Source of the DNA: Obrimoposthia wandeli | Taxonomy: Eukaryota | Direction of reading: 5' to 3' | Assembly: GCA_977020255.1 (NCBI GenBank) | Contig: CDROCS010000907.1 | Location: 62,001 to 126,000 of the forward strand | DNA: 64,000 nt | In this document: positions 15,601 to 64,000 of the stretch, one piece after another | Position numbering within the stretch: the stretch's first letter is position 1 | Layout: each line of letters starts with the position of its first letter | The notes under the pieces: model-generated | What the model was told of the DNA's origin: nothing | Seen by the model: only the letters and a program-made list of their open reading frames with translations | The model's database searches: none | Program-made: the position numbers and the translations under genes

Positions 15601-18600
15601 GTATATAAATAAAAAATATGTTCTTATATTGTTGTCATGGCAAAAAAGTTATGATTAGAATATCATAAGAATATTATATTCAACTTTATTAAATAAATAT
15701 ATTTTCTTTAATTAAACATTCTTGAATTTCGAATGTGTCTGTATTAAAGAGGGTTCCCTAAGATTAAATCTTTCTTAAAGGGAGGCGTAGTAACATAAAG
15801 TTAGGAACACTACATATGGGATTTCTTTAATGATTGGTATACCAAATAAAGCACCATGGAAGAACTGGGGAATATAAAGTTTCTGCTGAAGTAGTCAACA
15901 TAAAACCAAGATATATAAAGTGAAAGTAAAAGAAGAACCTGGTAACATGTCTCCTAGGGTGGGTGCATCAAATTAACATGTAAAAAAATTACTTTTCTTT
16001 TTTTGAGTTGTCTATGTTTCAGTTTTGTTCCATCATGGCCAAGAATCACACTGATAACATATTTTGAAAATTGAAGTTGATTTAGAGGTCCTCCCAAGCC
16101 CTTGTAAATTTCAATATGGTTGTCGGCCAGATTCAGCCCAACAAAGGCCATTAATGTGTTCATTTCTGCTCAGTTTACATAATAAATAAAGATAAAAAGT
16201 CAATAATTGTCTCCAAAAACATTTTTCATATTTTTATGTGAATTGTGACGATTGAAATTTGAGGATCACTCTGGCTTGATTTGTCAGACGACGTTGCTGA
16301 AGAGTCTGCGGCGGATCCTTATGAACAGCAGTCGCTCAGTGCTGGGCTCTGTAGACATGGCGTCGTCGAGCTCAGTTGGTAGCGGGTCCAGTTCCGTAGT
16401 CGGGGCTGGCGCTGGCTCAGATTCAGGCTCTCTCCAGCTGGCTTCTGCTGTCCTAGCTCCCATCGCCCCGGCAAACCTTTCTCCTGATCAACTGGAAGCC
16501 AGAAACAAGATCCTGGCTCTCCGTACTCTGGTGGAGTTTGACTTTGACAGTGAGTATCTCAAATGAGAATTTTTCAAAAGATAGTTTTTGTCTAGTATTT
16601 CTGAAAATCTGTAAGGCCTATATTTTAACCTAAAGTAAAAAACTCAAAAGTTTTCCTTTCGAGAACCAACGAACTTCGATGTGGTAAAGCAAGCCATTGT
16701 AGTCAGAATCCATAGCATCACAAAGTTAGGTTGCAGATCAAGCAGGATGGTAGAACAATACGTGGAACCAATGTAAAGACAACTTTGTATATATTTGAAG
16801 AAGGTAGAGCAGCATCAGTTTGTATTTCAAAGCAAACATTTACAATTTTTTGTCCTTTGTCAATCATTTTCTATCAATTCAGTATAATATTCAGAATTCG
16901 ATTTCACTTCTTTATCAGTAAAGTCAAACTTTAATATTGCTTGCCAATCCTAAGAAACTGAGTTCATCATTGATATTTTGTGGCTTGTACTGCGTTATAG
17001 TTTCCATGCAGACTTTTGTGATGTAAACTTACAATCACAGCTTTGTCAGCTTTGCCTCGGGGATTTAAAGAGATAATAATGTCTCGTCTGGAGTCACGAT
17101 GTTCGATAAACAATGTTTCTTTTCTGTTTGAATTTTTTCATTACTTCAGTTTAATTGTGTCTCTATAATTTCTGCCGTCAAAAAGGTTGGGACAAATCTT
17201 AAATAATGTTCGAACATTTTTATGCTTACGTTGAGTACTTATTGAATTACATTAAAAATTGAAGACTACATTAGCGAAAAATGTAAAACGCTTTCTTGAT
17301 ACTTTGACGATAATTTAAGTCCGGTAATTCAAAGATGTAAACCGAAGAGAGAAGACCGTGTTTTCCAGGTGCATACAAGCTTTACAGTAAGAAAGTGTAA
17401 TAATAATGAAAAATTCAAGACACCAAGACAATGCTATTTAGAAAATACAACAGTTATCTACTTAAAATTGATGATTTGTATAGAAGTATTTAATGACAAT
17501 TCTTACAAGTATTAAGGAATTTATGTTATTTTAGATCTTTGTTCTGGTCAAAGAATTATGAAAATGTCACGAAAGGATTTTTTATAATTTGATTTATAAA
17601 ATAATTCGTTTATAATTAAAAAAAAACGTTTGCTAAGTATGCTAAATGTTAAAAGAAGAAGTGAATTAATGTCAGCATGGATCTGTTTTTTTGCAGAGCA
17701 CAACTTGTCCCTGTTTGTACGCTTCATTTCCTCTAAACTTATCTCGTTCCTGCACTGTCCCTACAAGGAGCTACGAATCGAAGCCGTTCGAACATGCGCT
17801 CAACTTCTGACACCCCTGCTTGGAGTAAGCTTTGAAATTCCGATTTATTTAAAAAAATATATTTATTCAACATATACACTACTTATATTTATAAGTAACT
17901 GCCGATAACTATAATTAAAATAATAATCATTCAAAATCCTCATAGCAAACATTTAACCCATTAACCGCCGAGCCTAGAAATAATGACAGAAATAAAACGA
18001 CTTTTGTTGTAATTTATTTAGACCAAACTGGAAATATTTGCCAAATATGATAACTGAATATTTTCTCGTTTGGTTGATAATAGGTGTTGCGTTTTCGCAA
18101 CATTGGCGTAAAGTGTGAACAAATTTTACAAAAATAAGAAAATTACCAATTAAGTTCTCAAGTGGAAATAAATAGTTTTGAACATTGTATTAGCTGTATT
18201 TATGTAAAACAAAACATACAAGACTTAATGCATGAATATTTACATAGTTTATTTATATACAAGTAACTACCTAAAGGCATAAAATGTCAACAAGGAAACA
18301 CAAAGTGCAAACTTTATAGATAATTGAAATGTAATGGATATCAACATATGTATTTATGATAGAGTTATTGAGAAATGAAGTAGGTATATAATTAAATACA
18401 CGTCAATGTTTACAATACACGACTGTGGTATCTGTCAAAGCATTTTGTATGCAATCCAAATTTACACCCTTTGCATTTAAAAATTGTCTGAAAATGGCAT
18501 TGTCTACATCTAAGTCGCTTAATATTTTTAACAACAGAATGTTCAGTCATTGGTGAGCGGAGAATCTGTTTTTGTATAGCATAAGTAGGGCCTGGTTGAT

Positions 18601-21600
18601 GAGTTCGTCTTTCTGGAGTATTATCGACAAGTGGTTGAAATGTAAGCAAATCCAGACCTTCATTGTCAGAAACCAACCGACTCAAACGCCATGCATTGGC
18701 CAAGGAAGATTATATCAAATTCACAAATAGTGGCCACCTCCACTGCTTACCTTTTACTGAGATACGGTATCTTGAAACAAATGAATCATGTAAATCCACT
18801 TCGCCCATATACTTATTATAACTTTTGATCATTGTTGGTTGATCGACATTGATTAACTTCTTCTCGGATTGACTGAAGCGCTTGACGGAACAAAGTGGCA
18901 TAATGTGTTCAAAACTACTTGCCAAACACACATTCGCATTATCTTTCCATTCCACTGCAGTTATTTGAGCACTATTGTCATGGGCCCAATCAAATGTTCG
19001 TCGAGCTTTTTTGTTCCGAGTTTTACAGTCCATAAGGGGGCATTGTACAGGTCGGTTTTGGCGAACAGTTCCTGTAGCAAACATGCCATCATAACGTAAC
19101 TGTTCTAATAGTTTGTAGGACGTTGTATCTAATGCTATCACTTTCCACCAAAGTTTCGAAAACGCAACACCATCATTTAATAACTTTTAATCCATGGCTA
19201 AAAATTGACCATTTTTTAAAAATATACCATAGTATAATGCGTATGAATTTTATTCTAATTCTTCGAAAAATAATATTTATAATGTTTAATAAACATTACA
19301 TTATATAGAAGAATAAACATTTTGGACCAGTAAATCGGGTCTGTGGTTTGGGAAAGCAGTTAAATATTAAAAAATCAGTAAAATAAATAATCAATGTATT
19401 TGAATTTCTGATGTAGTTATAGACACGTACAGATTAAAAAATCAACAAATAAGCAGCAAACAGTTATTTATGTAGTGTTGCGAAAACACAACATTGGTGG
19501 TAAATGGGTTAATAGAATAAAAATCTTAATGTAATATGTCGATTTAGTATTTTATGTATATGGACAGTTGATTTTTTTTTCTATTAAAAAATTATTCACG
19601 AGTTATATTAACTATAATCACTAAAAAGTATCTAATTGTTCCATATTGAAATTCTTTTTTGTAATATTTTATTTTGGAAATAGCGTAACAAGTTTCGTCT
19701 ATTCCAAATAGTCCAATTTAATTCTATATCTGATTATATGAAAATAAACTCTAAAAATTCTGGTTAGGCCATGTTTTCAAAAACGTAAATCAAATTATAA
19801 AAAAATGCAACATTGTGAGAAAACGTAACCCCAAAATATCTTGCAATATATCTTTGAAAGATCATTTTAGTTAAGATGGCACTACACAATCCATTCTTCA
19901 TATCATAAAATATTCTTTGATATGATCAAATCTCTAGTAAACAGAAAATAAGAAAATAAGGTTGTGGATTAAAGCTATAATTGAAATAACCAAATTGACA
20001 TGTTAAGGTGGGGCAGAAGAGTGACAAATAAATTTCATGTTTCACTGACTTTTATAAAAATTTGGGATCACGTCTGAGTTACCCCCTATAAACAGTACAA
20101 GTCTGAGTTACCCCCAATAAAAATAACAAGGCTGAGTTACCCCCCAAAATTGTTAGTTTTGCTTTATTCAACAAAAAAATGTCATAAAAAAACTAAAATT
20201 CTAAAAATTTACTTTTATTCAATTAAAAAAAGATTAAAAAACTCTTCCACATTACCTCGGACGAAATAAACGTACCAGAGGAACTCATTAAGAAATTCAT
20301 TCCTTTTAATTCCCAAAACACCTTTTTTTCCTTAATAGTTAGTTTTAATTTATTGTTAAAACTCTCAACTCCCTGAGTATTAACTCCACTTTCCGGTTTC
20401 CCAAAATGGTATTTGTGACACACGGTTCGGTGTTCAAACCCAGTAATACTTCCCAGGGTTTTATAACTAGCAAATTCATCAGTATGGATGATACTTCCAT
20501 GTCTTACAACTTTGGAAATAATGGGAATGATTGTGGTTTTGGTTCTGTTCGGTAACAAACATCAAAAACATTTGGCTGGGGTCGTAGATGTATCAACAAT
20601 ACATAACACCCATGTTTGACTTCTTGGAGCTCTTCCTCGATGGGCTTTAACTGTATGGTTAACCATCACTTCATCAATCGGCACAATACAGCCTGGCCCA
20701 CCGAGCATGATTGGATTTTTCATGAAATGTGTATCAATTTATTTATTGAAACGTTTTTTTAATTTTCAGATTTGAATGTCTTGCCATTCCAACATAGTTT
20801 TCAATCTCAATCAATATATGTTTGTTACAAAGGTGTCCTAAAACTACTAAAATGTTCTTCAAAGGTTTTTGAACATTAAAAAAACCGAATTGGTTTTTAT
20901 ACTCTTGGTTGTTTGAAATTTAATACATCTAGGGTTAAGACACCTCCAATTGTATCCATCACAATTATCTTTGGCGGGTTTCAATATCATAATAACTTCA
21001 CAATACTTACAGGACATATCTACCTTTATTAATCCTAGTGTCATTGCAAACTGAACGATTTCCTCGTTTTGCGACCTTTCTACCTTGGATAAAAATCCAT
21101 GTAATAACATTTGGGTGGATTTAAAAAAAAATTTTAATCAATTAATTTATTAATCAATTACTAACTAACTCAAATCCTCCTGTATCCTTCGGATAGGACC
21201 TACGGTCCCTAACTAACTAACTAAATAGTCATATTTTTATAAATAAGTGTATTTTTTATGTTGTTTAGTTTTATTTTTTTTATTTGCAAAAAAATACAAG
21301 TCTGAGTTACCCCCCAAGTGGGGGGTAACTCAGACTTTGTCCAAAATTTGTTCATGTCAATCTTAGGATATGAAAGAATAGGTTCTAAAGACATGATTTG
21401 ATTATGTATGGAGCTGATGATTCACTGATTTCATCAAAGGCTTACAACGAAGCTTACTTTTAAAGAGGAGATTATAGCTCACATTGGGTCATTCTACCAT
21501 ATGTTCTTTCCATCCACCTCATCAAAATACTTGCCTGTTCTATCTTTTATAAAGTTGTTTAGCTATTTTATTGAACGCACCCCGACAGCTTTGGCATTTC

Positions 21601-24600: not shown

Positions 24601-27600
24601 TTCTCCTGATGATGATGCGCACCGAGGAGGTCGACTCTATCCGTAGAGAGGTACGCAGATGTGCCTCGATATGACACAATCTTAATATGTCATAACCTTG
24701 ATATGATACTGTCTCGATATGACACAACCTCAGTATTACCTGACTTTGACATTACACAACCTTGGCATGACACAACCCGACATTACATAACCTCGATATG
24801 ATATAACCTCAATATAGCACAATCAATATGACCGAATCTAAAATTTCATCTTTGGAATGTTTTTGACGATATAAAATTGGCAATTTAAATCGGCCAATAC
24901 ATTAATTGTGTAGTATAGATTTGTTTACTGATTACATGATGCTTCTACCCTCTTCAGGTCATTAAATTGCTGGGGACTATTGGTGCTCTGGATCCTTTCA
25001 AGTTGAAGGTATTCGGCTCTGCGGTAGATTCTGCTGAAGATACAGGACTAGTAGTGAGTGTACACGAAATTGTGGATAAGAAAGAAGGTGAGTTTGCGAT
25101 GGGCTACATTGCTACATTGGTGGTGAAAATTGAGACATACTTTTGAAAAGCCTTTTAAAAAAGTAGACTTACAAAACTGTTAGTTAGCTATTTTTTGAAA
25201 ATCAAAATCTCAATTAAATATTGGTCATTATATTTGTAGGAGCTAACTAAATTTATATTTGTAATTTTGACGGATGTGAAAAATCTGTTAATGTCCATAC
25301 GTGACTCTGCGCAGTGGACATGACCCAGACGGAGTTGCTGGTCAATGTGACCTGGTCGAGTATGGACGACTTCTACATCGCCTGCACCCTGCAGTCTTTG
25401 ATTCAGCTGTTGCGTGATCCTGCCTATCGGGCCTACTTCGACAAGATCTGCTACTCGATCATGCTCATCTTCAAGTCGCTAGGAGCCAAGTCCGTACAAT
25501 ATCTGCGTCAGATCCTACCCGAGTACTTCCGCTGCATCACCAATGCGCTCGACAGTCGCGTAAGACCGATAAGTTTTGAATAATTTCAAATAATTTCAAA
25601 ATTAGAAATACACCATTTAAGAATTAAAAATATATTGTAAACATGTTTTGAGTAGAAATCCCATTATCAGTATTGGTGTAAAATTAGAATATCCATCATT
25701 AAATATGCTGACAGCAGCATTTCACAACATTCACACAATATTGAGATTATACAATCACGTTAAAATATTTTCAACAGTTTTAAGCAAGCGTTTTGTATGT
25801 TTAATGACGACAATTTTCTTTAATATACAAAGACTCAAACGCTGTTCTTTCAGAATAATTCCTAAAATACTGATGAATAGAAAAACTCTTTCTCCTATTT
25901 TCACAAATGTTCAAAGACAGCCAATTTGAACTGTCGACAACTTATGGAATGTGGATAGATCATACAATGTTTATGTAGGATTTCACAAGAAAATGTATTA
26001 TTTCCTAATGAATTAAACATATGTATAACGGAATGTATATGTTTTTCAATATATTCAATTTTCTTTGTATCCGTTCTTAAGCAATCGTTTTTTAGTTTAA
26101 TCAAGTTTGTTTCAGCATTTATAAATTTTGAGGAAAACAACCAAATTTATGGACATGGTATTTTATTAAACTCATTGTTATTATACGATTTGTCATTGAA
26201 GCTGTACGGAGTTAAATAGTAGGAAATTTTGAAAAGTATAGTGCATGCTAATCGTCGGTAAGCACCTAACAATGATGCTCTGATTCGTCATTACCAGTCC
26301 CCATAATACAAATTCCATTTATTAACTAAAAATATAGCCAAACTCAAACTTAAAAGCTTCTTAAAATTTAGATTAATAACACACATGTAGTTAATTTTAT
26401 ATTTTGTGTTCTGTTGGATATTGATGGTGGAATAGTGTTTCCCATTCAAGTCATTTTTAGTTTAACAAGACAACATAACATATTTATGCAGGACCCTACA
26501 TCGGATCCAACATTGTTTTACGCAATCTCCGAGACTGACACTTGATGACATGCAATTTATTGTAGCTTGGACTAGATGTCACAGGAATTTTTCATAATAC
26601 TTCGATAACATTCTTTTAACAATATTTTTAAAAATTGACACTTTAAACTTTAAATATTGTGTTTTAATAGTATTTCTTTGATGAATATTGTTGTTTATTT
26701 TTGACTGATGAAACTACGATTTACCACCAGCAACAAGAGGTCCTGCTGAGCCATCTGTGCCAGATAACCGATGTGGTTCGTCTCCACTTGAAGCAATTCA
26801 TGCCGGATCTGGTGAGCATTATGCGCGACCTGTGGCACCGCTCTTCAGCTCTGTCGAGCATTTGCATTTCCGTGTTGCGACATTTGAATGCGGCCCTCGG
26901 TGCCGAGATCAAGCCTTTCTTGTGTCCTCTCATCGCAGACTTCCAGTACACCCTCACAGAGGACGCTGAGCAAACCGTCATCAAGGTGGGTACACACTTG
27001 TGCATTTCCGAAGAAATAACTGTACAGGGTAACTAGAAAGTCACGAAAGAAACTAAATCACTATTTTACAAACACTAGACACAAAATTATGATATTCTGG
27101 AAGACAAATGGATATTTAGGTTTCCCTGCCTCGAGCCTTCTACATACACTTTGAGTGCCTTTCCTTAATTCTTCTATGTATGTTTGGGACATTTCCTTAC
27201 TATTACATTGTGACTTTTTTTAGGGGGAAGCGATGATATGGCAGTCAAAGATGGAGTACGTGAATCCCATAAAACACAATTACTTGCATAAACACAACCA
27301 TCCAGCAATAGGTGTGATTCGTCTTTCTTAGTAGGAAAGTGAAAATCAATATCTCTCAAGAAAACTGTAATTACTCAAAAGAACAAAGCTGGATTCAATA
27401 TTTCAGTCTTTTAAATCCATTCATGCGACAACTTACTTTTATATTAAATTCATATAAGTTAGTAAAAGCAAAACGAAGTCACACATTGACGGAAAAAGTA
27501 ATAATCCCATTTACGGATATATTGTATAAACTTTAATTGGCAAATTCCTATTCAGCTATTAGGTTTTTTGTAACTATAATGCTTAAAAATGTACAACCCT

Positions 27601-47711: not shown

Positions 47712-49110
47712 TACATGTAATAGTTATATTGTACAGTCATGAATTGTATTCATTACACATAAATTAAAATGTTAAAAATCTATGTATCTTTAAAAATACT
47801 GCGTTTGACTAAAATCCATAATAATTATAACTTTTAGGAAGGTTCATTTTCGACACTGCCTATTAATTTTATTATCACCTTATTTTATACTTTTTCTGAA
47901 TAAACTTATATATTATTAAAACTAGAAATGGTCATACTTATGTACAACTTATATTTGGTATCCATTTTCTTAGATTGTGTCAAATTTTTGTAGTGGAGCA
48001 TATTCCTGATACAAGAGTGTGTTTCGCAAGACGAGAATTTTAAAATAATATTATTTGACACGTCTTTTTGAGTTGTTCAATGTTAAATTAATGTAAACAA
48101 ATTCTCTATGATTTCTCATTAATTATTTCAATTTACCGCTTTTGTCGTGCTGTATTAACATAACGAATCGCCGTCTTCAGTTATTTGAAGCGTTTTTGAC
48201 TCATGCAATCACAGAAATAAAGCACGAAAAAAGGTAAAATTTAAATATATACTCAAAAAATATATAACAAACGACGGTGTTGAACGGCAAAAGGGATAGC
48301 ATCAGTTTTTCAATGCGAAATTGATATCGGAATAAGAAACAAAATGCACAAACACAGGCATTAATTCATTCTAGAGGAGTAATCAAAGGATCACCAGGAA
48401 TGTAGAAGATTATCGCTAAAGTTATATTTTTTGAAAGAGTTGTCTTGCTTAATCGACCAAATGGGGAGAACTATTTTATGCACAGACCCATTTCTTAGCT
48501 ACTAGTCGAAAAACATGGCACGATGCATATATTTTAACGAATTATTTGGAGATTGAAAAAGGAACAACAATTCAATAAAACACCACCAACGTGAAGCACT
48601 TCCGAGACCGTTCATATTAAGATTAAACATTTCAAACACCAGAATTACAAAATAGTAACACATTAGATTTTGACTATAGTGACGATATTCCAGAATAAGA
48701 AATTGCCAGAATAAAAGATATCGCTGTAGTTAGAGGATATATTTGAAGTAATGCAAGAAATAAAAGAATGTGACGAACAATATTGGAAACTGACTATTAA
48801 ACATACAAAACTTATAATATTAGCTAAAAGAGAACTTTTTGTTATAAAACAATGATAATATGTCATAAATGACACAATTGTAAAAAGAAACGGCAAATTA
48901 ATCACACATACTTGAGTTACTTGGACAATTCTGGAATGATTCCGCATCATAATCATTAAGCTGCAAAAAAGTTTGAAAATGGAATTAACAAACAAATTCT
49001 TATCGCGTAATTTAGTATTCAACTATACATTTTGGAGTAAACATGATACGCCGAGAAGGGAATATAATTGAAGCACAACAAACAGCAGATATTATTGGAG
49101 TAAATAATTT

Positions 49111-52100
49111 TTGTCGATTTGTCGAAGAATAATAGATCGACAAGTGAGAAACATTAGATTTCACTATCCAAACAAAGGAAGTGGACCGACAGAGTGTAAT
49201 AATTCGATAAATACAATATACCATATGGGAAATATAAATGGAGCGCAGCGACCAGCAGCTATCATTAGAGTAAATAATTTAAGAGTAAAAGCCTTAATTG
49301 ATACAGGTGCTGTAGCTTCGATAGTAAGTGAAGACTGTTTGACAGAGGAACAGAAACGAACAATGGCAGAACCAGATGAATTCTTGGTATCGGTCAATGG
49401 AGACCCTGTTAAAGTGACGGGAATATTACCATGTACATTTATAATTGGGCGTAACACGATCACTATACCAGTTAGAATCATGAAAGAATGTCCTGAACCT
49501 ACAATTTTAGGAATGGATGTACTATCACAACTTAAAGGGATAAGTATTGATTTACAAGATCCAAGATTGAAGGATAGCACATCAAACAGACAAATAAACC
49601 AAATTGATGTAATTATAGAGAATCCTATAAAAATCGGTAAAAGATCACAATTTCTCATTCAAGGTCACACATTATCAGAAGATAAAGGACCAGTTGTGTT
49701 CGAACCATCACGAGATTTCATAGAGAAATACGAATTACCAGTTGTGAGTACAGTATGTCTGATCGAAAACCACAAAATACCAGTTAGACTGATGAATACA
49801 ACCAACAATGACATTCTATTATACAGAGGAATGAGGTTGGGAAAGATAGCACAGATGGAGAATCCCACCGTGTGTGCTATGAAACTCGATAAAGATACGA
49901 ATGATTATGAAGAAATAGTAATCCAATCAGAAAGACTGACAACTAGAGAAAAGAAACAATTACTTGATCTATTACATAAATTTCCGAAAGTAATTGCAAA
50001 AAATCCATATGACATAGGAGAAACACCTGTCATAAAACATACAATACCACTGACAGAAGACAAAGTAGTCAGAAGAAGACCATATCGAGTACCATTACAA
50101 TTACAAGATGAAGTAAAAAGTCAGATCGAAGATATGTCTAAAACAGGAGTAATTAGACCGAGTTTTTCGCCATTCTCAGCACCTGTGGTGTTGGTAAAAA
50201 AGAAGGATGGGAAAATGAGATTCTGTATAGATTTCAGAGAACTGAACAAGATCACAAGAAAAGATGTGTATCCATTACCTAGAATCGAAGAGATGCTCGA
50301 TAAATTGGGTAATTCAGATTATTTTACGACATTGGATTTGCAGAGTGGATACTGGCAAATCGAGATAGAGGAAGAGGATAAACACAAAACAGCCTTTTCC
50401 TGCGGAGATGGATTATACGAATGCGAAAAGATGCCATTCGGACTGACAGGAGCTCCAGCAACATTTCAGCGTTGCATGAATTTTGTGCTAACATCGTGTG
50501 CAAACACGATGGTTTATATTGATGATATCATAATATTTTCTAAGACGTTCGAGGAACACCTAAAAGACCTTGAAGTTGTATTTAAAAGACTGGAAAATGC
50601 TAAATTAAAAGTTAAACCTACAAAATGCGAACAGGCTAAGGAGCGAGTAAAATTTTTAGGACATATAGTATCGAAAGAAGGTATCCGACCTGATCCAGCA
50701 AAGATCGAGAAAGTAAAAGCGCATCCAGCGCCAAAGACTGTTAAGGAAATACAGAGTTTTTGGGTCTTGCGAACTATTATAGACGATTTGTTGAACAATT
50801 TTCAGATATAGCAACACCATTGAGAAAGTTGACGAGGAAAGATGAGAAGTTCATATGGGAAAAAGAAGCACAACAAGCGTTCGAGCGGATTAAGGAAAGA
50901 CTGATAAAAGCACCAATATTAGCGTTTCCAGATATAAACCGACAATTCATACTAATGACAGATGCAAGTAACTATGCTGTAGGAGCAGTATTGGGACAAG
51001 AGGATGACAAAGGAAGAGAACACGTCATCGCATATGGAGTAGAGGGTTAAACAGAGCAGAAAGAGGATACTCTGTTATTGAGAAGGAATGTCTAGCCATA
51101 GTATATTCATGTAGACAGTACAGACACTACTTGCTAGGACAAAACGTATTCCTGTATACAGATCACAAACCACTACAGTTCTTGTATAAACATAGAGACG
51201 AGATGAGTAGATTAAACAGATGGTTTCTGAAATTGGCCGAATTTGATCTAGAAATCCGTTATAGAACCGGAAAGTCGAAGGGCAACGCAGATTGTTTGTC
51301 GAGATTGATAAATGTAGACGAGAAAGGAAACATAATTCCAGAAGAAAGTCAAGATGAAGTCAGTGACCAAAAAGGAGAAGCAAATCTACTAACGATTTTG
51401 CTGAAGACGGGTAAAATAGAAAAAGAGATCACCAAGGAACAGAAAGAAGATGAAGAACTGAGTCTAATCAAAGAACTGTTAGTGAAAGGAGATCTAAATG
51501 ATGAAATGACGAAAAATACTCGATGAAAAAAGGAATCTTGTATATTGTCAACAATGTCGGAAAGATAGTAGTAGTAATTCCGAAGTCATTGAAAACAGCA
51601 GTGAAGATCCAGTATCACGATGGAACACTGGGAGGACATCTGTCAGGACGAAAGACAATAGCCAGAATCAAAGAGAAGTACCATTGGGATGGTATGGAAG
51701 ATGACATAAAACTATGGTGAAAACAATGTAAAGTATGTTTAACCAGAAAAGACACTGGAACTCGTACTAAAGTTCCACTGAAACCGATGCCAGTTCCTTT
51801 GGCACAAATGGAATTCACAGCGATGGATATATTGGGATCATTGAGAGAATCGAGTAAAGGAAACAAGTACGTCATAGTATTTACGGACTACATGACGAGA
51901 TGGGTAGAAGCATACCCCATGCAAAACCAGAAGGCTGAAACAATAGCGCAGATCTTAGTGGAAGAGATAATATTTCGATACGGAGTGCCTAGAAAGTTAA
52001 TAACGGATCAAGGCAAGAATTTCACTGGAGAAGTAATAAAAGCAGTATCAAAGATATTTGGAATCATCTTCATTCTTCACCATATCACCCACAAACCGAT

Positions 52101-52745
52101 GGTCTAGTAGAAAGGTTTAATAAAACTTTATGTATCATGGTACAATCTTATTGCTCCGATAAGCAAGAGGATTGGGATAAGTATTTACCTTCATGTTTAT
52201 ATGCTTACAGGAATTCAGTTCGAGAGGCGACGGGTCACACACCATTCTATCTGATGTATCTCAGACAGAACAATATGCCAATGGATCTGGAGTGAACCGA
52301 ACCAACATATCAGTACCTAGAAACTGAACAATACATTGTCGTCATGAAGGAAAGACTACAAGATGCTTAAACTAAAGCAAAATTGAAATTGAAATTCAAT
52401 CAAGAAGGTTACAAGGAACAATATGACAAAAAGGCAAAACCACATGAATTTAGAATCGGAGATCAAGTGATGATATTTTACCCAGTCATCGAACCAGGTC
52501 TATCGTTTAAACTTCACAGACCATACAAAGTACCATACAAGGTGATACAGACAATTTCAACGAACTTGAAAGTAATCAACGAGGAGAACCGGAACAAGGA
52601 AACAATGATTGTACATGCGAATCGATGTAAACTGGTACCGAATAAAGATAATGCGTCACGATATGAGCTAAGATCACAGAAATTGAAGCTGAATACCAAT
52701 ACTATTAAACTTACACGAATGATCGAAGTGATCGAAACTACATAA
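49111..52745 (+). pseudogene. pol: Ty3/gypsy pol (protease-RT-RNase H-integrase), disrupted
   Basis: LIDTGA protease; RT (PFSAPVVLVKKKDGKMRFCIDFRELN, LDLQSGYWQ, MPFGL, YIDD); RNase H (LMTDASNYAVGAVLGQ); integrase HHCC (GGHLS...C..C), core (FTDYMTRW, LITDQGKNF) and GPY/F-like tail. Gypsy domain order; frameshifts near 50760, 51050, 51520 and 52100. Confidence 0.95.
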
Positions 52746-52750
52746 ATACG

Positions 52751-55700
52751 ATGACAAGTGGTAGCGATGAAAAACCAGCGAGAATTGGCATGCTCAGAAT
52801 GAAGCACCAAGAGGAACGAGAAGAAATCCGACACATCGCATCACAAGAGATATTAGAAGAAGACGAAGAGATCATAGTCGTTTTCGAAAGAACACAACTA
52901 ACAGATGTGGCGAAAGAAGTCAGTGTAAAAGATGCACTAACAAACGAATTTATGTGCGAACTTAGAGTGTCATATTTCAATGGAAATACACTAGTCGCAG
53001 AACTGCATCAAAACTCCAATGTGTTTACGACTGAGAAAGTGATAATAGAAATCACATTGACATCAAACATAGTTGCATGGCAGAACTATGACAGTACCGA
53101 AGCATGACTAGCCAGTCAGGAAGAAAAAGAACCGGCCGGTGGTAATATACTTCATGGTACACCAAAAAGACTCAAACAGGAATACCATGATGTGATAATG
53201 GTATTACGCAATTCACATGGGAAAAAAGATATAGTGAGAGTTCATTTAATCGACGCCGACACAAAAAAGATAATATGTCAGATGGTCACCAAATACTTTG
53301 ATGGAAAGACCATTGTATGTAATATACCGGTATCTCACCAATTGAAAACAGATCAAACGGAAGTATTTGTAAGGTTGAGCGTAATAGAAGGATTCCATTC
53401 GCCAACCCAACCGGAAGTAACAAACAATAACATCGTTGAAGCAACGGCAGAGTTACGCATTAACAGCGGATACCGAAAGTGGGAAGCTAAAAATAAACCA
53501 CAAAGAATCAATATGATCAGAGAACAAGCGACAAACTCAATCCAGCCAATATATCATGCTGAAATAGTATCATCTGCGCCAAGTGTGATTACATCGATAA
53601 ACGACGAAATTATAATTTTACTAAAAAATCGATGGCCATCATCAACCGAGATACGAGTCAACTTAGTGAATTATGCAAAAACACCGATATCTAAGCTAAA
53701 TGTCACCTATTTCGATGGATTGTCCATCATGGGTAAATTGGAAACAATTGTCATGTGCTATGGAGCACAGTTCCAAGTTGAGATAATTAAGGATAGTGTA
53801 ATACCTTATTAGATTCATAGAGACTCAGGACCAGTCAATCCAATTATTCTAACCCCTTCATTAATTTCAGTTCAAACAGACATACCAGAACACCCTTCGA
53901 GCGAGTCTAGTCAAGACAGCGAACCTGAAAGCAGCGATCCAGAGTCAACAGAATCCGAAGACAACATAATAGAGCGATTTGGAAGAACCATGGAGGTTGA
54001 ATTCGCCAAAGAAAACAGAAAAAGATGAAACATAGAATTCATGGAAAAGAATATACAAGAAAGACGAATTAAATCCGCAGAAGAGACCGAGTCAGAAGAG
54101 GAACTAACGAAGGAACAGACATCAGAGACAAAGATGAATATCTCTCCAGCAATACGAATGCTGAGAGGAAAGAAACTGGCGAAATTATTCATCATAGATG
54201 AACAAATAGAAAAGCGATTAGAAAGACTGAGACTTGAGGAATCAGAATTGATGCCACCAATGAGTGAGATAATTCCAGACATGTTATACCTCGGAAATGT
54301 GGAAGACGCAACAGACGAAAAGAAACTGTTGGAAAAAGGAATAACATATGTGATCAATGTTACAATGAATCACTAATCACGATACAAGACAATCAGAGCT
54401 ATGACATTAAGAGTGAAAGACTAAATGGAGGCTAATCTTCTCGAATGGTTCGGAGAAACAAACGAGATAATTTACAAAGAACTCCAAAACCAAGGAAAAG
54501 TATTGGTACATTGTCAGAAATAAATCTCTAGATCAGCAACCTTGGTATTAGCATATCTAATAAAGAGTAGGCGAATGCAGGTACTAGAAGCGCTGAAATA
54601 TCTACAAGAGAGACGAAGTATCGCGAACCCAAACCTTAATTTTTTGGGACAATTGTCAAATTACCAACTCTTGTTGCAAGAACGGAGACGGATGGATGAC
54701 ATTCCCGAAGATCCAAAGGAAAAGAATTTCCTCCAATCACTATCGTTGACCGGATTATTCTTAGTAGGAGTCGTTAAAATCACCCAGATAATGCCGCAAG
54801 TATTTCTATGTCAACCAATAGATATAGATACTACTGGATTGAAGTTCCACAGTATCAACAGAGTGATTAACATTGTTGAATTCGAAAACGAGATAATCAG
54901 TATATGTCAAAATACTGAAGATGATAATACACGTTATATACATGCTTCAAATCGGGAGGTAACCCACGCACAACTACACCTGAGGAAGTTGACTCAAACT
55001 ATCCAAGCCAAAGTCACAGAAAGAAACGGCGTTCTGATATATCAGAAAAAAGGTACAATGTTAGCACCTACCATAGGTGTATCCTTGTTGGTAGAGTACA
55101 TCAGAGGAAACGATGGTCTACATCAAACAGAATAGACCAGATACGGAATTCAAACCGTTACTCGTTCGAGAAATATAGAAATACTCCGAAAGAAGGTAGC
55201 AACAACGAGAAATGAATGAGTTTTCAACAACAGTGCCCAGCTATCAGTACCGAAGATTGCTAGCACTAGCTTGTTAAGTTGTCTAATGCCAACAACGGGA
55301 GCACAAGAGATAGGCTCCAACCACGGAAATAATTCCTGGATCAAAGAAATCAACAACTACATCATGCAGTACAATACACCGACACTGATGATGCTATTAG
55401 TGTTGATAGGACTGATCGATGTTTGGCTTATCAGAAAATGTATCCGATCCATAAGAACCGACATAGAAAGATTCCAGTTTGTAAAAATGAAGAGATCAAA
55501 CGGACCAACAACCCAAGCACTTGTTTATCTAGACGAAAGGATCGAGGAGAACATAGTGAATGAAGCAATATATTATCCACAAAACAGACGACTGAATCAA
55601 TTCCGAATGGACTATGAAGCTGACCGACAGCGCACACTCGATAGAATATCAGCAACGTTTGCAGGATGCGGGCTTGTAAAATGAATTGTAAAGGAAATAC

Positions 55701-57580
55701 AAAAAGATGCAGATACAAAAGGTACGACGTATATATTCGACGGCGATGTCATCAAAACACGTGAGTATGGAAGTAAGAGAGTGATAATCGAAACGAAGGA
55801 AGGACATAAAACATGCTTGTCCGCCAAAAATGGATTCGGAAAGCTGGTGATACAAGGTAAACAGGTACAGTTGATTATCGGGAAAGCCGGAGTCGAAGAA
55901 ATGTCAAAACAACGCCAGACAACCAAGACAAAACGACATGACCAGAAACGGGTGTATCTGAAACGAATAATAATCAAAACCGTTTTGAAAAGGACGACCA
56001 AGGCCCTGTACACTGTCGCACAAGGATTGATCTACGGAGTAGTAATTGGATTGGTACTACAAGCCATTCCAACGAGTAAAGCTGAATTGATGACGCTACC
56101 TGAATATAATCTACATTTGAGAAATCTAGATAACACCCTAGAAATAATCAAGACGTCTCACAGTAAAGCCGTGATGATCACGTGTGTGAAAGGATATCCA
56201 GAACGAGTATATATAATACCAGCGACAGAAATGAAAAAACTAAATGGATATTATGGAGTTAATGTTGTCACATGTGAAGGATACACATTTGTACAAACTA
56301 AAATAGTACATATCAGTGACATGTCCAAACAAAGTACACATAAATTTAAAATATTAACCATCAAAAGTAAAGGGATACAAGCAATACGTTATGGTATTCT
56401 AGAATTGGTTAATCCAATACTGGCATTGATTATCGGAATCATAATATTAATACTACTCCTCTTGTTTTGTTGTACAAAGATCGAGCTGAAATCAAAAAAG
56501 AAACGTCATGATCTCGCAAGACGAACAGGTAAAATTAATTTACAAAAATTCGACACAACTATACCAAGACCAGCATTAATAAATGAACCAGCACCGGAGT
56601 ATCAGCCAACGATATATGAACATATCGAGGAAAGACCGTACTTCATGAGTAACTTGAGTTATCCCAGAGAAGTTCCTGAGATTCGGATTCGAACGATAAT
56701 AGGAATCATGTTGATCATACAAATCACCACGACCGAGGCTGGTTACGAGATCATGATCAGTAAATGGAGACAAGATACGATACGTGCGTTATACATAGAA
56801 ATACCTATACTAAAAACGAATCACATAGTAGACATTCAACTACAAACATCCGCAACCGAAAATGTCGATCAGAAATTGTATGTCATCCGCCAGATTGAAA
56901 TAAAGATTGACAAACATACACTTTACTACCGACTGATACTATTCTATTATGAAAAGATATTATACCTACGAATAACAATATCAAAAAAGAAACGGATTAT
57001 CCAAATAATCCGAACAAAGTCAGTAATATTGCCTAACGACGAGCGCATCTGGAAAGTTATTGACAGGATTATGGTCACAGGTAAACGACGTAAAACTGTA
57101 TGGAATTCTGTTAATTTATTCTTCAGATTGTTAGAAACTGACCAGGTAACAGTGGCGTGTCCCAATCCAGATGACGGAATCAAATTCGCAATACAACGCC
57201 AAATGTTAGTACCACATTATGATGCAGAATGTCTATGTAACCGAATTTCCAGTGATGCTAAAGAGACCTCTACCGTAATCATAGTAATAACAGGTGAAAT
57301 ATTCTATATAACTCTAAGATACCAGACACGTTGATTTCGTGGACTAGGTATGAGCATCAGACCCAAGAAATTCAATTCCGGGAAACCAAACACAGTCATA
57401 AAGAAGGCAAAGGTGAAAGGAAGACAGCTCCATTCCGAGAAGCCAAAAGCAGTCATAAAAAAAGGCAGAGGTGAAAGGAAAATAGCTCGATTCCAGAAAC
57501 CAAAGCACAATTATCGAGAGGTCAAGAGTGATGGAAACGATTCCACTGGATCTCAAATCTCGAATAATAATACCCTTTAG
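52751..57580 (+). pseudogene. Single ~1,610-codon post-pol frame (TIG-like x3, DUSP, multi-TM env-like polyprotein) with ten internal nonsense codons
   Basis: ORFs 52751, 53192, 54041, 54542, 55271, 55781 and 57350 share one frame; the gaps between them contain only isolated stops (53105, 53810, 54026, 54374, 54422, 54521, 55133, 55217, 55682, 57332). Confidence 0.85.
54260..54680 (+). pseudogene. Dual-specificity protein phosphatase (DUSP/VH1-like) domain within the element polyprotein
   Basis: MSEIIPDMLYLGN...GITYVINVT...RVKD...GKVLVHCQK*ISRSATLVLAYLIK...EALKYLQERRSIANPNLNFLGQL: the full DSP fold motif set, with HCx5R interrupted by a stop. Confidence 0.92.
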
Positions 57581-57699
57581 ACAAAAAACAAAATATCCGA
57601 TACTGCGATTTATTAGAAAATCAGACATAATACACGGAAACCGAACAGCACCAATGGTAACGCCATCTAAACCAACAAACATCAAAATAAAATCAATCC

Positions 57700-57906
57700 T
57701 CAGACAGCGGGATAACTACAGTCAATGCTTTAATTGTAATGGCCGTAGTGTCAACTGCAGTAGTTCTTTTGACAGTCGTGTGCGTGAAAGGCAGTCAGGT
57801 ATGCCCAAGAATACGACGAAGATGCAAAGAGCTACGATGCTGTAATACAACCATGATGGAGGAAGTGGAATTGCGACCCTTACCTCCGCCTCCCATCAAG
57901 ACATGA
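57700..57906 (+). pseudogene. Frameshifted C-terminal transmembrane anchor and Cys/Pro-rich tail of the polyprotein
   Basis: SSDSGITTVNALIVMAVVSTAVVLLTVVCVKGSQVCPRIRRRCKELRCCNTTMMEEVELRPLPPPPIKT*. Confidence 0.6.
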
Positions 57907-58033: not shown

Positions 58034-58723
58034 ATGTCTGAGGAATGCCCAATATGTTTGGAAGATATAACCGAACGAAGAACAAGACCCAATACATGCA
58101 ACCACCTACACCACGAGGAATGTTTATCAAAATGGATCCCAACTTATGGAGAGTTTCCCCATCCAACATACCCTCGTTGCCCTGTATGCAGAAGACAATT
58201 CACAAAGTTCATCATAATAGAAACCAACCAAGAGGATGTAGATGTACAGGTGGAATTTTGTTGGAAAAATTTGAGAGAAAGTTGGTGTGTATATTCTGTA
58301 CAGCAGAACGACAAGATCCGACCACTTTTGTGTAAACATCACACAACAACCAACCCTAAATCGAGCCCAAATTCAACATCACCCTCTCACAGCAATGTCT
58401 GGAGAATGTTCCATCTGCTACGAGAACATCGTGGACCTCTACACCAAACCCAACAACTGCGAACACAAATTCCATGTCCAATGCCTCGAGACATGGATCC
58501 CAGTTGTCAACAGCAACAAGCCCCTCGACTACTCAACCTGCCCGATGTGCAGGGCATCCTTCTCGGTACACTTCGTATACAACCGAGACTGTCTTCAAGT
58601 AGTGGTACCCATCGTACACTGCTGGAAGGACATCTGCGACTGCTGGTGCATGTTCTGCGCGGAGGAGCGACGCACAGGCCAGTCCGACAGCCAAAAATAA
58701 TCGAAGGTAACTTTTTGAAATAA
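58034..58723 (+). CDS. RING-H2 finger protein 1 (putative E3 ligase)
   Basis: MSEECPIC...TCNHLHHEEC...W...CPVC, a C3H2C3 pattern; the 3' part overlaps RING 2 in another frame. Confidence 0.85.
   Translation: MSEECPICLEDITERRTRPNTCNHLHHEECLSKWIPTYGEFPHPTYPRCPVCRRQFTKFIIIETNQEDVDVQVEFCWKNLRESWCVYSVQQNDKIRPLLCKHHTTTNPKSSPNSTSPSHSNVWRMFHLLREHRGPLHQTQQLRTQIPCPMPRDMDPSCQQQQAPRLLNLPDVQGILLGTLRIQPRLSSSSGTHRTLLEGHLRLLVHVLRGGATHRPVRQPKIIEGNFLK
58395..58700 (+). CDS. RING-H2 finger protein 2 (putative E3 ligase)
   Basis: MSGECSIC...NCEHKFHVQC..TW...CPMC plus a Cys-rich tail HCWKDICDCWCMFC; frame intact. Confidence 0.88.
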   Translation: MSGECSICYENIVDLYTKPNNCEHKFHVQCLETWIPVVNSNKPLDYSTCPMCRASFSVHFVYNRDCLQVVVPIVHCWKDICDCWCMFCAEERRTGQSDSQK

Positions 58724-59547: not shown

Positions 59548-60336
59548 TGGAACACTGACACTTTACCCTTTCCTTCACCTTTTCCTTCTCTTAACCTTCT
59601 CATTCTTAAAACAGTCATTTTTGTAAAAATACATGTCAATGGAATATTTGTTGACCATTTCCGAATTATTCGAATAAGACCGAAAAATACCAATTCTTGT
59701 CAACTAGTGGGTATGTTGAAGAGTAATTGAATGTTTGAAATTAAGTGGGGATGTTTTTTCTAAAATCTGGGATTAGTAAATTAAAATCGATACGTTCCGA
59801 GGACGTAACTTTTTTGGAACCCTCGAGATATGTTAGGATTAGGTTTTGATTAATTTAAAATAATTAATCATTTTTATACTAAAATAAAAATCCTTGAAAG
59901 CAAGGTTACAATTAAGATAAAATTAATTATAAAATTAAAATTATAAAAATAAAACCATTGGAAAATATTAGGACCACGAAGGCCATGTGTAAGCATGTGC
60001 AGTATATATAGATATTTAAACTAAACCAAAGGCCCCAAGAAAAACAGAAGAACTTCATTAAAAAGACAGAAACACAATCAAAGAAACATCGAAAAGGAAT
60101 CAAGGTAAGAAATATTAGCATTTAGCTAAATTAATTTCTTCCATATAGAGTGCTCGACAAGGAAACGAACACCGGACTCCATTAGTCATCAGTGGGAGCC
60201 AGCAGATGATAGTCTGCCGAAGAAACCGATTCAATTAGACCGATTCCATTAGGACTGTCACAGGAGGTGAATTTCAATATAAAAGAGAAATTACTTTATT
60301 TTTAAGAAAATATAATCCAGGAGTGAAATTTGGGAA

Positions 60337-60483
60337 CAGAAAGTCAATTTGAGAACTCGTCGATCTAATCCGAGTAGGAGAATAACAGAAAGTCAATTTG
60401 AGAACTCGTCCATCTAATACGAGTAGGAGAATACCAGAAAGGCAATTTGAAAGCTCGTTTATAGAATCCGAGTAGGAGAAAAC
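60337..60483. repeat. Three 49-bp tandem repeats
   Basis: CAGAAAGTCAATTTGAGAACTCGTC...GAGTAGGAGAATA at 60337, 60386 and 60435. Confidence 0.9.
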
Positions 60484-60692
60484 CAAAATAATTAGAGAAG
60501 CAGAAAAGGTGGGTCTGCAACGCAGAAAGCGAATTAACTTTCCTTTTTAGAAATGTAGAAAGGAGACAAAAGGAGGTCTTGTTACACAGACATCTGGGAC
60601 CAGGGAACTCGCACCGGACGCAGCTATCTCGGATTGAGGAAGACGCACTGCGAACTTGCACCAGACGTGCAGGCCTATCCGGAGGAAGGTAA

Positions 60693-60960
60693 GAAGTGCG
60701 AATTGATTTTATTCTAAAATAAGTGTTGTATTGAAGTAAATTTAAACGAAGAAGTGCGAATTGATTTTATTCTAAAACAGTGTTATATTAAAGTGAATTT
60801 TGAACGAAGAAGTGCGAATTGATTATTTATTCTAAAATAGTTTTTTTTTATTGTTGAATTTTGATAAAGAAGTTAAAGTAAAACTTGAAATTGCCCTATA
60901 TTTTACCGTTGAATTTTGATAAAGAAGTTAAAGTAAAAACCCTAAACTGCCCATATATTT
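60693..60960. repeat. Three 58-bp repeats followed by two 55-bp repeats
   Basis: GAAGTGCGAATTGATTTTATTCTAAAA at 60693, 60751 and 60809; GTTGAATTTTGATAAAGAAGTTAAAGTAAAA at 60853 and 60908. Confidence 0.88.
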
Positions 60961-62399
60961 AGAGTAAAGACTCTAGTTAACAAACGACCCTCAATTAAAA
61001 TCGATACGTGGACCATCACCAGTTGTGTAGAGACTTGTGAATGTCTTAGGAATAGTATTGTCAATTTTAGAACGTAATTAGAACGTGTTTAGCTTAGTGT
61101 GTCTAGTAATAAAAGATTTCCTACAACTAAACAGCGTTGTTATAGACCCTTCAAATTTAGAAATAACAAACCTTCAAATAAACTTAGAGACAGGCAAGCA
61201 TAACATTAAGTAGGCCACAAACATCTACAAGCCCTGCTTCTATAGAACTCACGTTGGGGCCTTCCATTCAGAGGATCTATATTAAAAAACAGTTTCATAT
61301 AGAAACCCCAACAAAAAGATAGATTAAAAAAAATCTTCTAACAATTAAAGTCTAGGAGAGATTTAGATGGACTTGATATTAATTACTTAACAAGATACAC
61401 AAGTTATAAAAAATCAAATTTTACTACTAAGAACAATTCTCATCATAAAAGGTCATAACCATAGAGTATATGCTCTACTGGACTAAGTCATAACAACTAG
61501 TATTATTAGTGACTAAGTTGTTGACTATCTAAATGTGAAGGGCTATATGGAGTCAATACCTATTTGAAAGATTGAAAGAAGAAAAAAGTAAAAGAGTTGT
61601 TAAGTGGTAAGCTGCAAAATTGAAAGTTATAATATACAAATAAGAAAATTTAATAGTGTTTTGGCGATTAAACAAACATCAGCCAAATTAAATGTTATAT
61701 ATATTGGGAAGATGCAACAAGACATTGAAATCATCTAAAATGAATAACGTTTCTTTCGATAGGAAAAGCAAGACATCAATAAGCTCCTTGGTTCGGACAA
61801 AATTGAATTACAGCGGTCTATTATCTTGTCGTTAGAAATAGAGGTGATCACGTAGACAGATTAACTTCACTGAAGTAAACATGCATATGAAGAGTAAAAG
61901 TAAATAAAGCTGTACAAAATCAAACAAATTTCATTCACACGTTGTCAATAAATACTGAGATTGACGTTCAATTAAAAAAATTAAGAAGTGGATAATATTA
62001 AAAATATATATGAGACGTCTTAAACCATTAAAGACTTATATATCAATCAACAACTAATTCATTACCTGAATGGATGGTCAGTACTCAATAAAAATCCAAG
62101 GGAACAAAATAAAAGTAAATTATTTTTTAATAATAATTAAAAAAAAAATTGTGCTAAATAATGATGCCTTGTTGAAAAGGGAATATGAAAATTTTGTTAT
62201 TATTTACCAGTTTTTATGACCTTAATAAAGTAATATATTAAAATTTTGATTATTTTTTAATTAAGCCTTACATTTACAAGATTCAATTATTTACTGAGTT
62301 TCAACCTGGATACTGTTGTATTTGTTATGGCTTTGAAAATATTAATGTTTATATATCAGATATAATTTTTATCATATAATAGGACAATTTTTTGGAAGC

Positions 62400-63030: not shown

Positions 63031-63840
63031 AATTGTTGTATAGGTTTTGTATGTAGAATTTCAGTAACTCGTTTTAAGTAGTCAGTGGTAGGGTAGAGTT
63101 GAGATTGATTTGAGGTGAGCTGTTTGAGTATGTTGAGTATGTTGAATGTTTTTAATACTTCCATGATTTGTTTGTTGGATGATATGATTAGATTATGGAG
63201 GACGTATGTTCGAATTAATGATCGCTGATTCACTTGTGTTTGTGGGATTCATAAATTGAGTCCAAATATTTTATGCACCTCTACATGATTGTGTTTAGGT
63301 GAACTTGTTTATGTCTGGCTATATAATATATAACATTGTCGATGTTTTGAAATATAAATTGAATTTTGATTTGGTTTCTTAGTAATGCTGAAAGGTATCG
63401 AAAATGTTTTGTTGCAGGAAAGGACTGATACCTCTCAAAGTATTCCTCAAACTATGTCGCAAATATCTGCAGTATATTCAATTGCAGAGGCTGTTCTTAC
63501 AACTTTGGAACAAGAGGAATGAACAAGCTCATTATTGACGAAAAATCAAATGCAGATATGGATAAAAAGAATCATAAACACTCCCACTGTGCATAAAAAT
63601 TTAGCTTTCTGATTAGAAGTATAACCATATTATTTTTGATATTAGAAAAATTTATAAAATTACATTATTGAGCAGTGTAATATTATCATAATTAATAATA
63701 GTAAATTATTCTAATAATCATATTTTGATATGTTTAAATAATAATGTTATCTTTCCGGAATTTTAAAATTTATAAAAAGTGAAAAAGATTCACAAAAAAT
63801 AATTTTTTAACATGTATAATTCCAATATTTCAAGAAGTAG

Positions 63841-63982
63841 CTTCGAAACTCCTCGAATGGCGGAGTCTATCGGGTCATCTCAGAATTCAGATGATGACTT
63901 CGACTCAACTAATATGATGAGACGTGACCGTCGCAGAGAATTACATACTCAAGCTGAGCAAAGGCGAAGAGATGCTATTAAG
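63841..63982 (+). CDS. MLX: Exon of a Max-like protein X (Mlx) bHLH-zip gene; continues beyond window
   Basis: MAESIGSSQNSDDDFDSTNMMRRDRRRELHTQAEQRRRDAIK|gtattt matches the Mlx basic region HTQAEQKRRDAIK; acceptor at 63834 or 63840. Confidence 0.85.
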
Positions 63983-64000
63983 GTATTTTAAATTAGATTT

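Follow-up and report, generated by a model that had tools for sequence, protein, structure and literature searches.

A phosphatase-bearing polyprotein tail in the genome of Obrimoposthia wandeli: probable decayed C-terminal third of a Burro-like giant Ty3/Gypsy element

In a stretch of 64,000 nucleotides (nt) from Obrimoposthia wandeli (assembly GCA_977020255.1, contig CDROCS010000907.1, positions 62,001 to 126,000, forward strand; this whole stretch is referred to as the window), the nearly open frame at 52751–57580 is best read, with a probability of roughly 0.8, as part of a Burro-like giant Ty3/Gypsy element that carries an envelope (env) part and resides in a flatworm, of whose single polyprotein it would form the C-terminal third in a decayed state. 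This third, termed the tail, comprises ~1,725 residues. An initial annotation had interpreted seven open reading frames (ORFs) in this interval as fragments of one ancestral ORF3 of ~1,600 codons that had decayed by point mutation, with no frameshift in 4.8 kb.

Recomputation confirmed that the seven ORF starts lie in one frame (all 2 mod 3), in which ten internal stops of mixed type are found in addition to the TAG at 57578. The other two plus-strand frames over 52751–57580 contain 163 and 93 stops versus 11 in this one, and in a control of 500 shuffles the best of the three frames contained at least 79 stops (mean 102.9). The near-absence of stops over 4.8 kb is a real signal of a former single coding frame.

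For sister comparison, 29 copies were aligned from 42 DNA matches to the window element. At eight of the ten internal stops at most one of the 29 sisters carries a stop, and among 12 copies, a biased set as these were chosen for long frames, six are wholly open. The ORF fragments thus represent one decayed ancestral frame, as initially proposed. Stops introduced by point mutation were part of the decay, but point mutation was not its only mode, since indels contributed as well. The window copy is ~94% identical to its older sisters, is 5'-truncated and has, as private lesions, eight stops and five indels; it is a dead, truncated insertion. The stops and a stretch read off-frame are located as follows:

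53105, 53810, 54374, 54422, 54521, 55682 and 57332, plus strand: private stops of the window copy, among the eight
55096..55268, plus strand: off-frame stretch holding the stops 55133 and 55217 (sister alignment)

The sister alignment gave a different picture at these last two stops. In the register of the window, the stop triplet at 55133 is present in 29/29 sisters and that at 55217 in 26/29. Taken at face value, this would fit separate genes or programmed readthrough at 55133/55217, with a phosphatase split from a membrane-protein gene, and stops kept across copies were what the initial annotation had named as evidence against its own proposal. This conservation is misleading. Eleven nt near 55096 that are present in 28/29 sisters and 1 nt near 55268 present in 29/29 are missing from the window; the two deletions cancel, and ~57 window codons between them are read off-frame. 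The two stops look conserved because the compensating deletions expose triplets that the sisters read in another register. With the sisters read in their proper frame, the region 55001–55399 is kept in frame in 24/29 and is stop-free in 16/29. The ratio of nonsynonymous to synonymous polymorphism (pN/pS) over the off-frame stretch was 0.12 in the sisters' frame versus 0.53 in that of the window, indicating selection on the former, which also completes the fold of a pseudophosphatase. Separate genes or readthrough are thus so improbable as to be practically negligible. The claim that no frameshift had occurred did not hold, given these compensating private deletions and an extra base near 57457. 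Compensating frameshifts of this kind are a trap for the method, as they give off-frame stops an appearance of conservation across copies.

Both boundaries of the initially annotated frame, the 5' stop at 52743 and the 3' stop at 57578, are peculiar to the window copy. The window carries 2 extra nt near 52724 that are absent from all 29 sisters, and the apparent pol stop at 52743 results from this insertion; in contigs from a public run, ~97% of the depth at 52724 was without the 2 nt (one sample, possibly the source). Across the junction from the integrase to the ATG at 52751, the frame is kept in 26/29 sisters and open in 23/29. At the other end, the window has an extra base at 57457, where 21 of 24 covering sisters are 1–2 nt shorter, and lacks 8 nt near 57691 that are present in 30/30 copies. 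The apparent end at 57580 is due to these private indels. The family stop at 57904, 326 nt beyond the annotated end, is kept in 30/30 copies and, starting from 57335, is reached without an earlier stop in 12/29 covering copies. All 12 long-frame copies cross the integrase-tail junction, and 6/12 continue to the end stop. Of the 150 protein matches scored, 14 fall within open frames that exceed the tail in length; one such frame, of 4,633 codons, includes the tail. Pfam assigned reverse transcriptase (RT), integrase and DSPc together to one natural frame. Since the frame of the sisters continues from the integrase to 57904, the stretch is not an ORF3 but the tail of a polyprotein.

The ORF measures ~5,476 codons between its flanking stops and ~5,360 if counted from the first Met (codon 118–128), with 3,751 codons before the tail Met and ~1,725 in the tail, so the size of ~1,600 codons had to be replaced by an ancestral ORF of ~5,400 codons. 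Tail, pol and front are almost certainly one fused ORF. A separate ORF3 that starts independently at 52751 and decayed by point mutation only would account for the ATG at 52751 in 29/29 sisters and for the privacy of eight stops, and translation of a spliced RNA could begin internally at Met 52751. It is nevertheless very unlikely, because the stop before the ATG was made by a window-only insertion, the natural frames run from the integrase into the tail, the family frame ends at 57904, and four private indels are located in the stretch or at its end.

Purifying selection acted on the tail during the spread of the family. For the window and 28 sisters (one near-duplicate was dropped), with codon states common to at least three copies, pairwise pN/pS values of 0.15 for tail amino acids (aa) 1–780 and of 0.20 for aa 842–1565 were obtained, with 0.04–0.42 for individual tail segments. 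Private changes gave a pN/pS of 0.59 and 84 new stops. The selection check among copies suggested by the initial annotation thus came out as purifying along the tail. A functionless, hitch-hiking tail captured from the host or from a foreign source would agree with the presence of some lesions in every copy examined in full; we consider this extremely unlikely in view of the low pN/pS on shared states, the retained catalytic residues (see below) and the presence of the same tail in 10/10 more distant copies with 83–92% DNA identity.

The tail consists of the following parts:

52865..53815, plus strand: three repeats of ~80–95 aa (tail aa ~39–118, 145–240 and 283–355)
54251..54685, plus strand: dual-specificity protein phosphatase (DSP) domain (PF00782, E 2.7e-32, stops as X)
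54773..55220, plus strand: second DSP-fold domain, a pseudophosphatase (PF00782, E 2.3e-6 in a sister copy, below cut-off)
55230..57906, plus strand: membrane half of ~890 aa (hydropathy; family stop 57904–57906)

The three repeats are 27–32% identical to each other and contain the private stops 53105 and 53810. Comparison of the repeat region with the Atlas gave TIG clusters with a score of 0.93. The repeats were modelled as a β-sandwich of low confidence (predicted local distance difference test, pLDDT, 55), with a best Z score of 6.9 and a root-mean-square deviation of 3.1 over 83 residues; at Z scores of 5.3–6.9, IPT-type domains of plexin, Met, NF-κB, NFAT, BCAP and EBF were matched amid unrelated sandwiches. 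No match to the repeats was found in Pfam, a profile of the three gave none among PDB sequences, and a homolog search of the region, metagenomes included, was empty. Foldseek yielded no match at E ≤0.001 in the PDB or BFVD. The repeats are probably IPT/TIG-type β-sandwich domains.

The DSP domain spans tail aa ~501–645. In the window it contains the private stops 54374, 54422 and 54521, and its CX5R loop is broken by a private stop. The best PDB match of the domain from a sister copy was the catalytic domain of DUSP10/MKP5 (E 2.9e-25). Among the sisters, the catalytic Cys is retained in 28/29, the Arg in 26/29, the Asp in 28/29 and the whole CX5R loop in 25/29; from these residues, the domain in the sisters is catalytically intact and predicted to be active. 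The second DSP-fold domain is without catalytic Cys and Arg, and its PDB match was DUSP28 (E 0.002); its end is off-frame in the window, and the fold is completed in the sisters' frame. A length-limited homolog search with the whole tail and a PHROGs search were both empty.

In the membrane half, hydrophobic segments were located at tail aa ~832–850, 880–898, 1087–1113, 1225–1243, 1312–1330 and 1669–1687; four segments exceeded the hydropathy threshold, and 832–850 and 1312–1330 were judged by eye to be signal-like. A stretch with a tyrosine motif (TxYxxI, kept in 24/28 sisters), a basic region and a Cys/Pro-rich end are also present. The basic part contains tandem repeats of 58 nt at 57375–57504. 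Lesions of the window copy in this half are the stops 55682 and 57332 and the indels near 57457 and 57691. A single-sequence model of tail aa 1114–1230 was unusable (pLDDT 38). No homolog of the membrane half was found among 1.84 billion representatives, nor in viral contigs, the PDB or Pfam.

For aa ~1090–1527, the Atlas gave glycoprotein polyproteins of phlebo-, flavi- and alphaviruses at scores of 0.81–0.86, values below 0.9 that are to be taken as leads only. These leads, together with the pattern of signal-like and transmembrane segments, would fit a second envelope or entry module of viral origin, and the tail, being in the Gag-Pol frame, could be carried into particles; the phosphatase would then act on particle proteins of the element instead of host MAPKs. 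The poxvirus VH1 and baculovirus PTP phosphatases act on proteins of their own particles. We regard this reading as unlikely, because cysteines are few (3 in aa 1331–1660 of a sister copy), the database searches for the membrane half gave no match, and a full fusion glycoprotein is already present upstream in the element.

The architecture of the element was deduced from sister copies with a full polyprotein (~5,360–5,480 codons), with Pfam used for domain calls. From the N terminus, the order is Gag (CCHC), ubiquitin-like segment, Bcl-2-like segment, mononegavirus-type fusion glycoprotein, second protease, BIR and RING, followed by protease, RT, RNase H, integrase and tail. The Ty3/Gypsy order of protease (PR), RT, RNase H (RH) and integrase (IN) is present in the window and the sisters. 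The fusion glycoprotein (PF24664, Monjiviricetes, E 1.7e-94) lies in a natural frame common to CCHC, BIR and RING. BIR (PF00653, E 1.1e-10) and RING (E 1.1e-10), the inhibitor of apoptosis (IAP) part of the polyprotein, are found upstream of the protease. The additional aspartic protease lies between env and BIR; each polyprotein therefore has two proteases. Between PR and RT, inspection by eye had suggested a dUTPase-like segment, for which neither Pfam nor the PDB gave a match. At the env signal segment, an in-frame ATG microsatellite comprises 18, 38 and 184 repeats in 3/12 copies (L037:3080, L039:1957 and L041) and 2–5 in the others. In the window, the following parts lie upstream and downstream of the tail:

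48140..48850, plus strand: diverged relic, from a related element, of the part holding second protease and BIR (tblastn, 25–56% aa identity to a sister frame; 67–75% DNA matches)
49115..52750, plus strand: pol of the 5'-truncated Ty3/Gypsy copy, comprising the IAP RING end, protease, RT, RNase H and integrase with several frameshifts (Pfam; sister homology starts at 49115)
59831..61313, plus strand: 3' long terminal repeat (LTR), TGTT...AACA, with a variable tandem-repeat interior (sister comparison)

The window copy begins at 49115 within the IAP RING. Complete copies without nested inserts measure 22–24 kb, and both 5' and 3' LTRs with TGTT...AACA ends were found in sister copies. The LTR pair of one copy is 99.1% identical over 1,265 bp and is accompanied by a 4-nt target duplication, which was observed in one of two copies read at both ends; other LTR pairs are 83–96% alike. 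The element family moved recently. A TGG-type site, a candidate primer-binding site, is found 8 nt after the 5' LTR in 4/7 junctions and a TTGA-type variant in the other three. No polypurine tract was detected directly before the 3' LTR (window 59805–59831 and sister junctions), where a pyrimidine-rich junction recurs; a purine run lies ~80 nt upstream of the 3' LTR junction. The LTR contains tandem repeats of 49, 58 and 55 nt at 60335–60480 and 60691–60938, and LTR interiors differ strongly from copy to copy. With regard to abundance, at least 32 DNA candidates with 91–96% identity over long stretches and at least 150 protein matches (window included, all ≥91% identity) were found. The idea that some copies have different 3' halves was dropped, since 10/10 tested copies have the identical kind of tail.

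Three RING ORFs follow the polyprotein as separate frames:

58034..58335, plus strand: RING-H2 ORF 1 (99 codons in 15/28 sisters)
58395..58700, plus strand: RING-H2 ORF 2 (101 aa), a paralog of ORF 1 with 35% identity
59018..59392, plus strand: RING ORF 3, the end of which varies among sisters (176 codons in 5/20)

These ORFs were also under selection (pN/pS 0.12–0.34; 0.31 for ORF 2). ORF 1 is extended in the window by a private 2-nt insertion near 58285. A fusion of ORFs 1 and 2 into one gene was rejected, as the 229-aa frame of the window is due to a private indel. In the distant copies L102–L110, an overlapping open frame of ~200–235 codons extends across ORFs 1 and 2 in 8/10 copies; no selection on alternative frames of the RING region was seen in the closer copies.

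The host genome comprises 1.35 Gb. Exons of the host TOR gene (HEAT, FAT, kinase and FATC) are located at ~23943–47075 on the plus strand, and the element starts ~1–2 kb past the TOR stop codon. One TOR exon is 73–78% identical to TOR of trematodes and cestodes and ≤65% to that of other named taxa; the host is therefore a flatworm. A 16-nt minisatellite (9.6 copies, 24664–24815) lies just after a TOR exon. At 63803–63991 (plus strand), we assume the start of a basic helix-loop-helix-like exon resembling Mlx, for which there was no Pfam match, and the ORF at 20223–20561 (minus strand) is presumably a fragment of a Merlin/IS1595-type transposase. Two duplications were also observed, a perfect tandem one of 352 nt at 13311–14008, which may be an assembly artefact, and one of ~400 nt at 6175–7012. 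A pair of 33-nt inverted repeats 1 kb apart at 18083–19171 resembles a miniature inverted-repeat transposable element.

With the stretch taken as the tail of the polyprotein, it would serve as accessory cargo of the element. The protease(s) of the element may release a cytosolic module of three IPT-like repeats, active DSP and pseudo-DSP from the integrase, while host signal peptidase may cut the membrane half at the internal signal-like segments, giving about three small membrane proteins. In cells expressing the element, the phosphatase would most likely damp stress or apoptotic kinase signalling of the JNK/p38 type, possibly alongside the Bcl-2-like and IAP domains and the three RING E3-ligase ORFs. 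In planarians, wound-induced apoptosis is driven by JNK, and DSPs occur in poxviruses and baculoviruses. We put this MAPK-damping role forward tentatively, at a little less than even odds. It is conceivable, with the odds rather against it, that the element represents an undescribed cargo system, in which an LTR element with a captured phosphatase and a toolkit in the style of large DNA viruses, assembled in one frame, silences both the stress and the innate-immune signalling of flatworm stem cells. Such a toolkit would comprise the Bcl-2-like and IAP domains, DSP and pseudo-DSP, IPT repeats as NF-κB/BCAP-like decoys, receptor-like membrane proteins with the TxYxxI motif and three RING ligases.

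The closest described relatives are the Burro/GYPSM1 giant Gypsy-like elements of planarians, which exceed 30 kb and have a single ORF1 of 4,873–5,140 aa (PMC6431247). The front of ORF1 comprises Gag, Ubi/SUMO-like, BCL2, an in-frame mononegavirus-like Env and BIR, and the remainder PR, dUTPase-like, RT, RH, IN, MATH and ankyrin; the domains were assigned with HHpred, and ORF1 of the D. tigrina element does not include MATH (PMC6431247). Both systems share one huge ORF, a flatworm host, high copy number, Gag, an in-frame Env between Gag and Pol, BIR and the order PR-RT-RH-IN, and candidate ubiquitin-like and BCL2-like segments lie here in the corresponding places. The polyprotein of ~5,400 aa described here compares with 5,140 aa for the largest in PMC6431247. 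Features found here and not in the Burro description are the second protease before BIR, the three RING-H2 ORFs and the post-integrase tail of ~1,725 aa with IPT-like repeats, DSP, pseudo-DSP and membrane segments.

Several points weigh against assigning the stretch to a Burro-like polyprotein with this tail. The element is, at 22–24 kb, smaller than Burro; it has a single CCHC knuckle, and MATH, ankyrin and dUTPase gave no match in the Pfam and PDB searches of the polyprotein. The ubiquitin-like (E 0.007–0.045) and Bcl-2-like (E 0.018) segments are below the Pfam cut-off, though in the expected place. Kinship with Burro was deduced from domain order as described. As for the tail, the pN/pS values were neither corrected nor based on a tree, assembly errors may account for some of the single-base indels, and cleavage sites and topology were taken from hydropathy alone; one putative cleavage pentapeptide occurs in the window version in only 9/28 sisters. 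DUSP10 was ahead of other DUSPs by a few bits only, and no rhodanese or kinase-docking domain was matched on the tail by Pfam. Because size and knuckle number, MATH, ankyrin and dUTPase either differ or were not detected, the element is called Burro-like and not a Burro member; a Burro-like kinship is very probable.

The word 'phosphatase' is absent from the main text, figure not covered, of the Burro review (PMC6431247), and a term search of PMC13524379, PMC6338049 and PMC12440569 did not find it. No phosphatase-carrying LTR element was retrieved by literature searches, the scope of which did not extend to Grohme 2018, Lee 2026 and Repbase or to figures and supplements, where the domain may already be shown. 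According to passages of PMC13465017 that cite Lee et al. 2026, the B-IAP of Burro1 is reported to protect planarian stem cells from caspase-mediated apoptosis and to aid regeneration. BIR and RING are situated inside the polyprotein in both that element, as far as these passages describe it, and the one studied here; the passages speak of IAP only. The selected, intact phosphatase, the IPT-like repeats, the membrane proteins and the RING ligases suggest that giant elements manipulate host signalling more broadly, and the element offers individual domains amenable to knockdown and enzyme assays.

A captured viral fusion glycoprotein is shared with errantiviruses and Anakin, the env of the latter having been captured from chuviruses according to PMC12440569. 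Other gypsy-like elements have env as an ORF of its own (PMC6431247); unlike in errantiviruses and Anakin, env is here in frame before pol, and the post-pol region is not env. The DSPc fold with Asp and CX5R is shared with DUSP10/MKP5 and its relatives, and the second domain is, like pseudophosphatases of the STYX type, without Cys and Arg. In contrast to DUSP10/MKP5, no docking domain was found, and an active and a dead domain are arranged in tandem inside a retroelement polyprotein.

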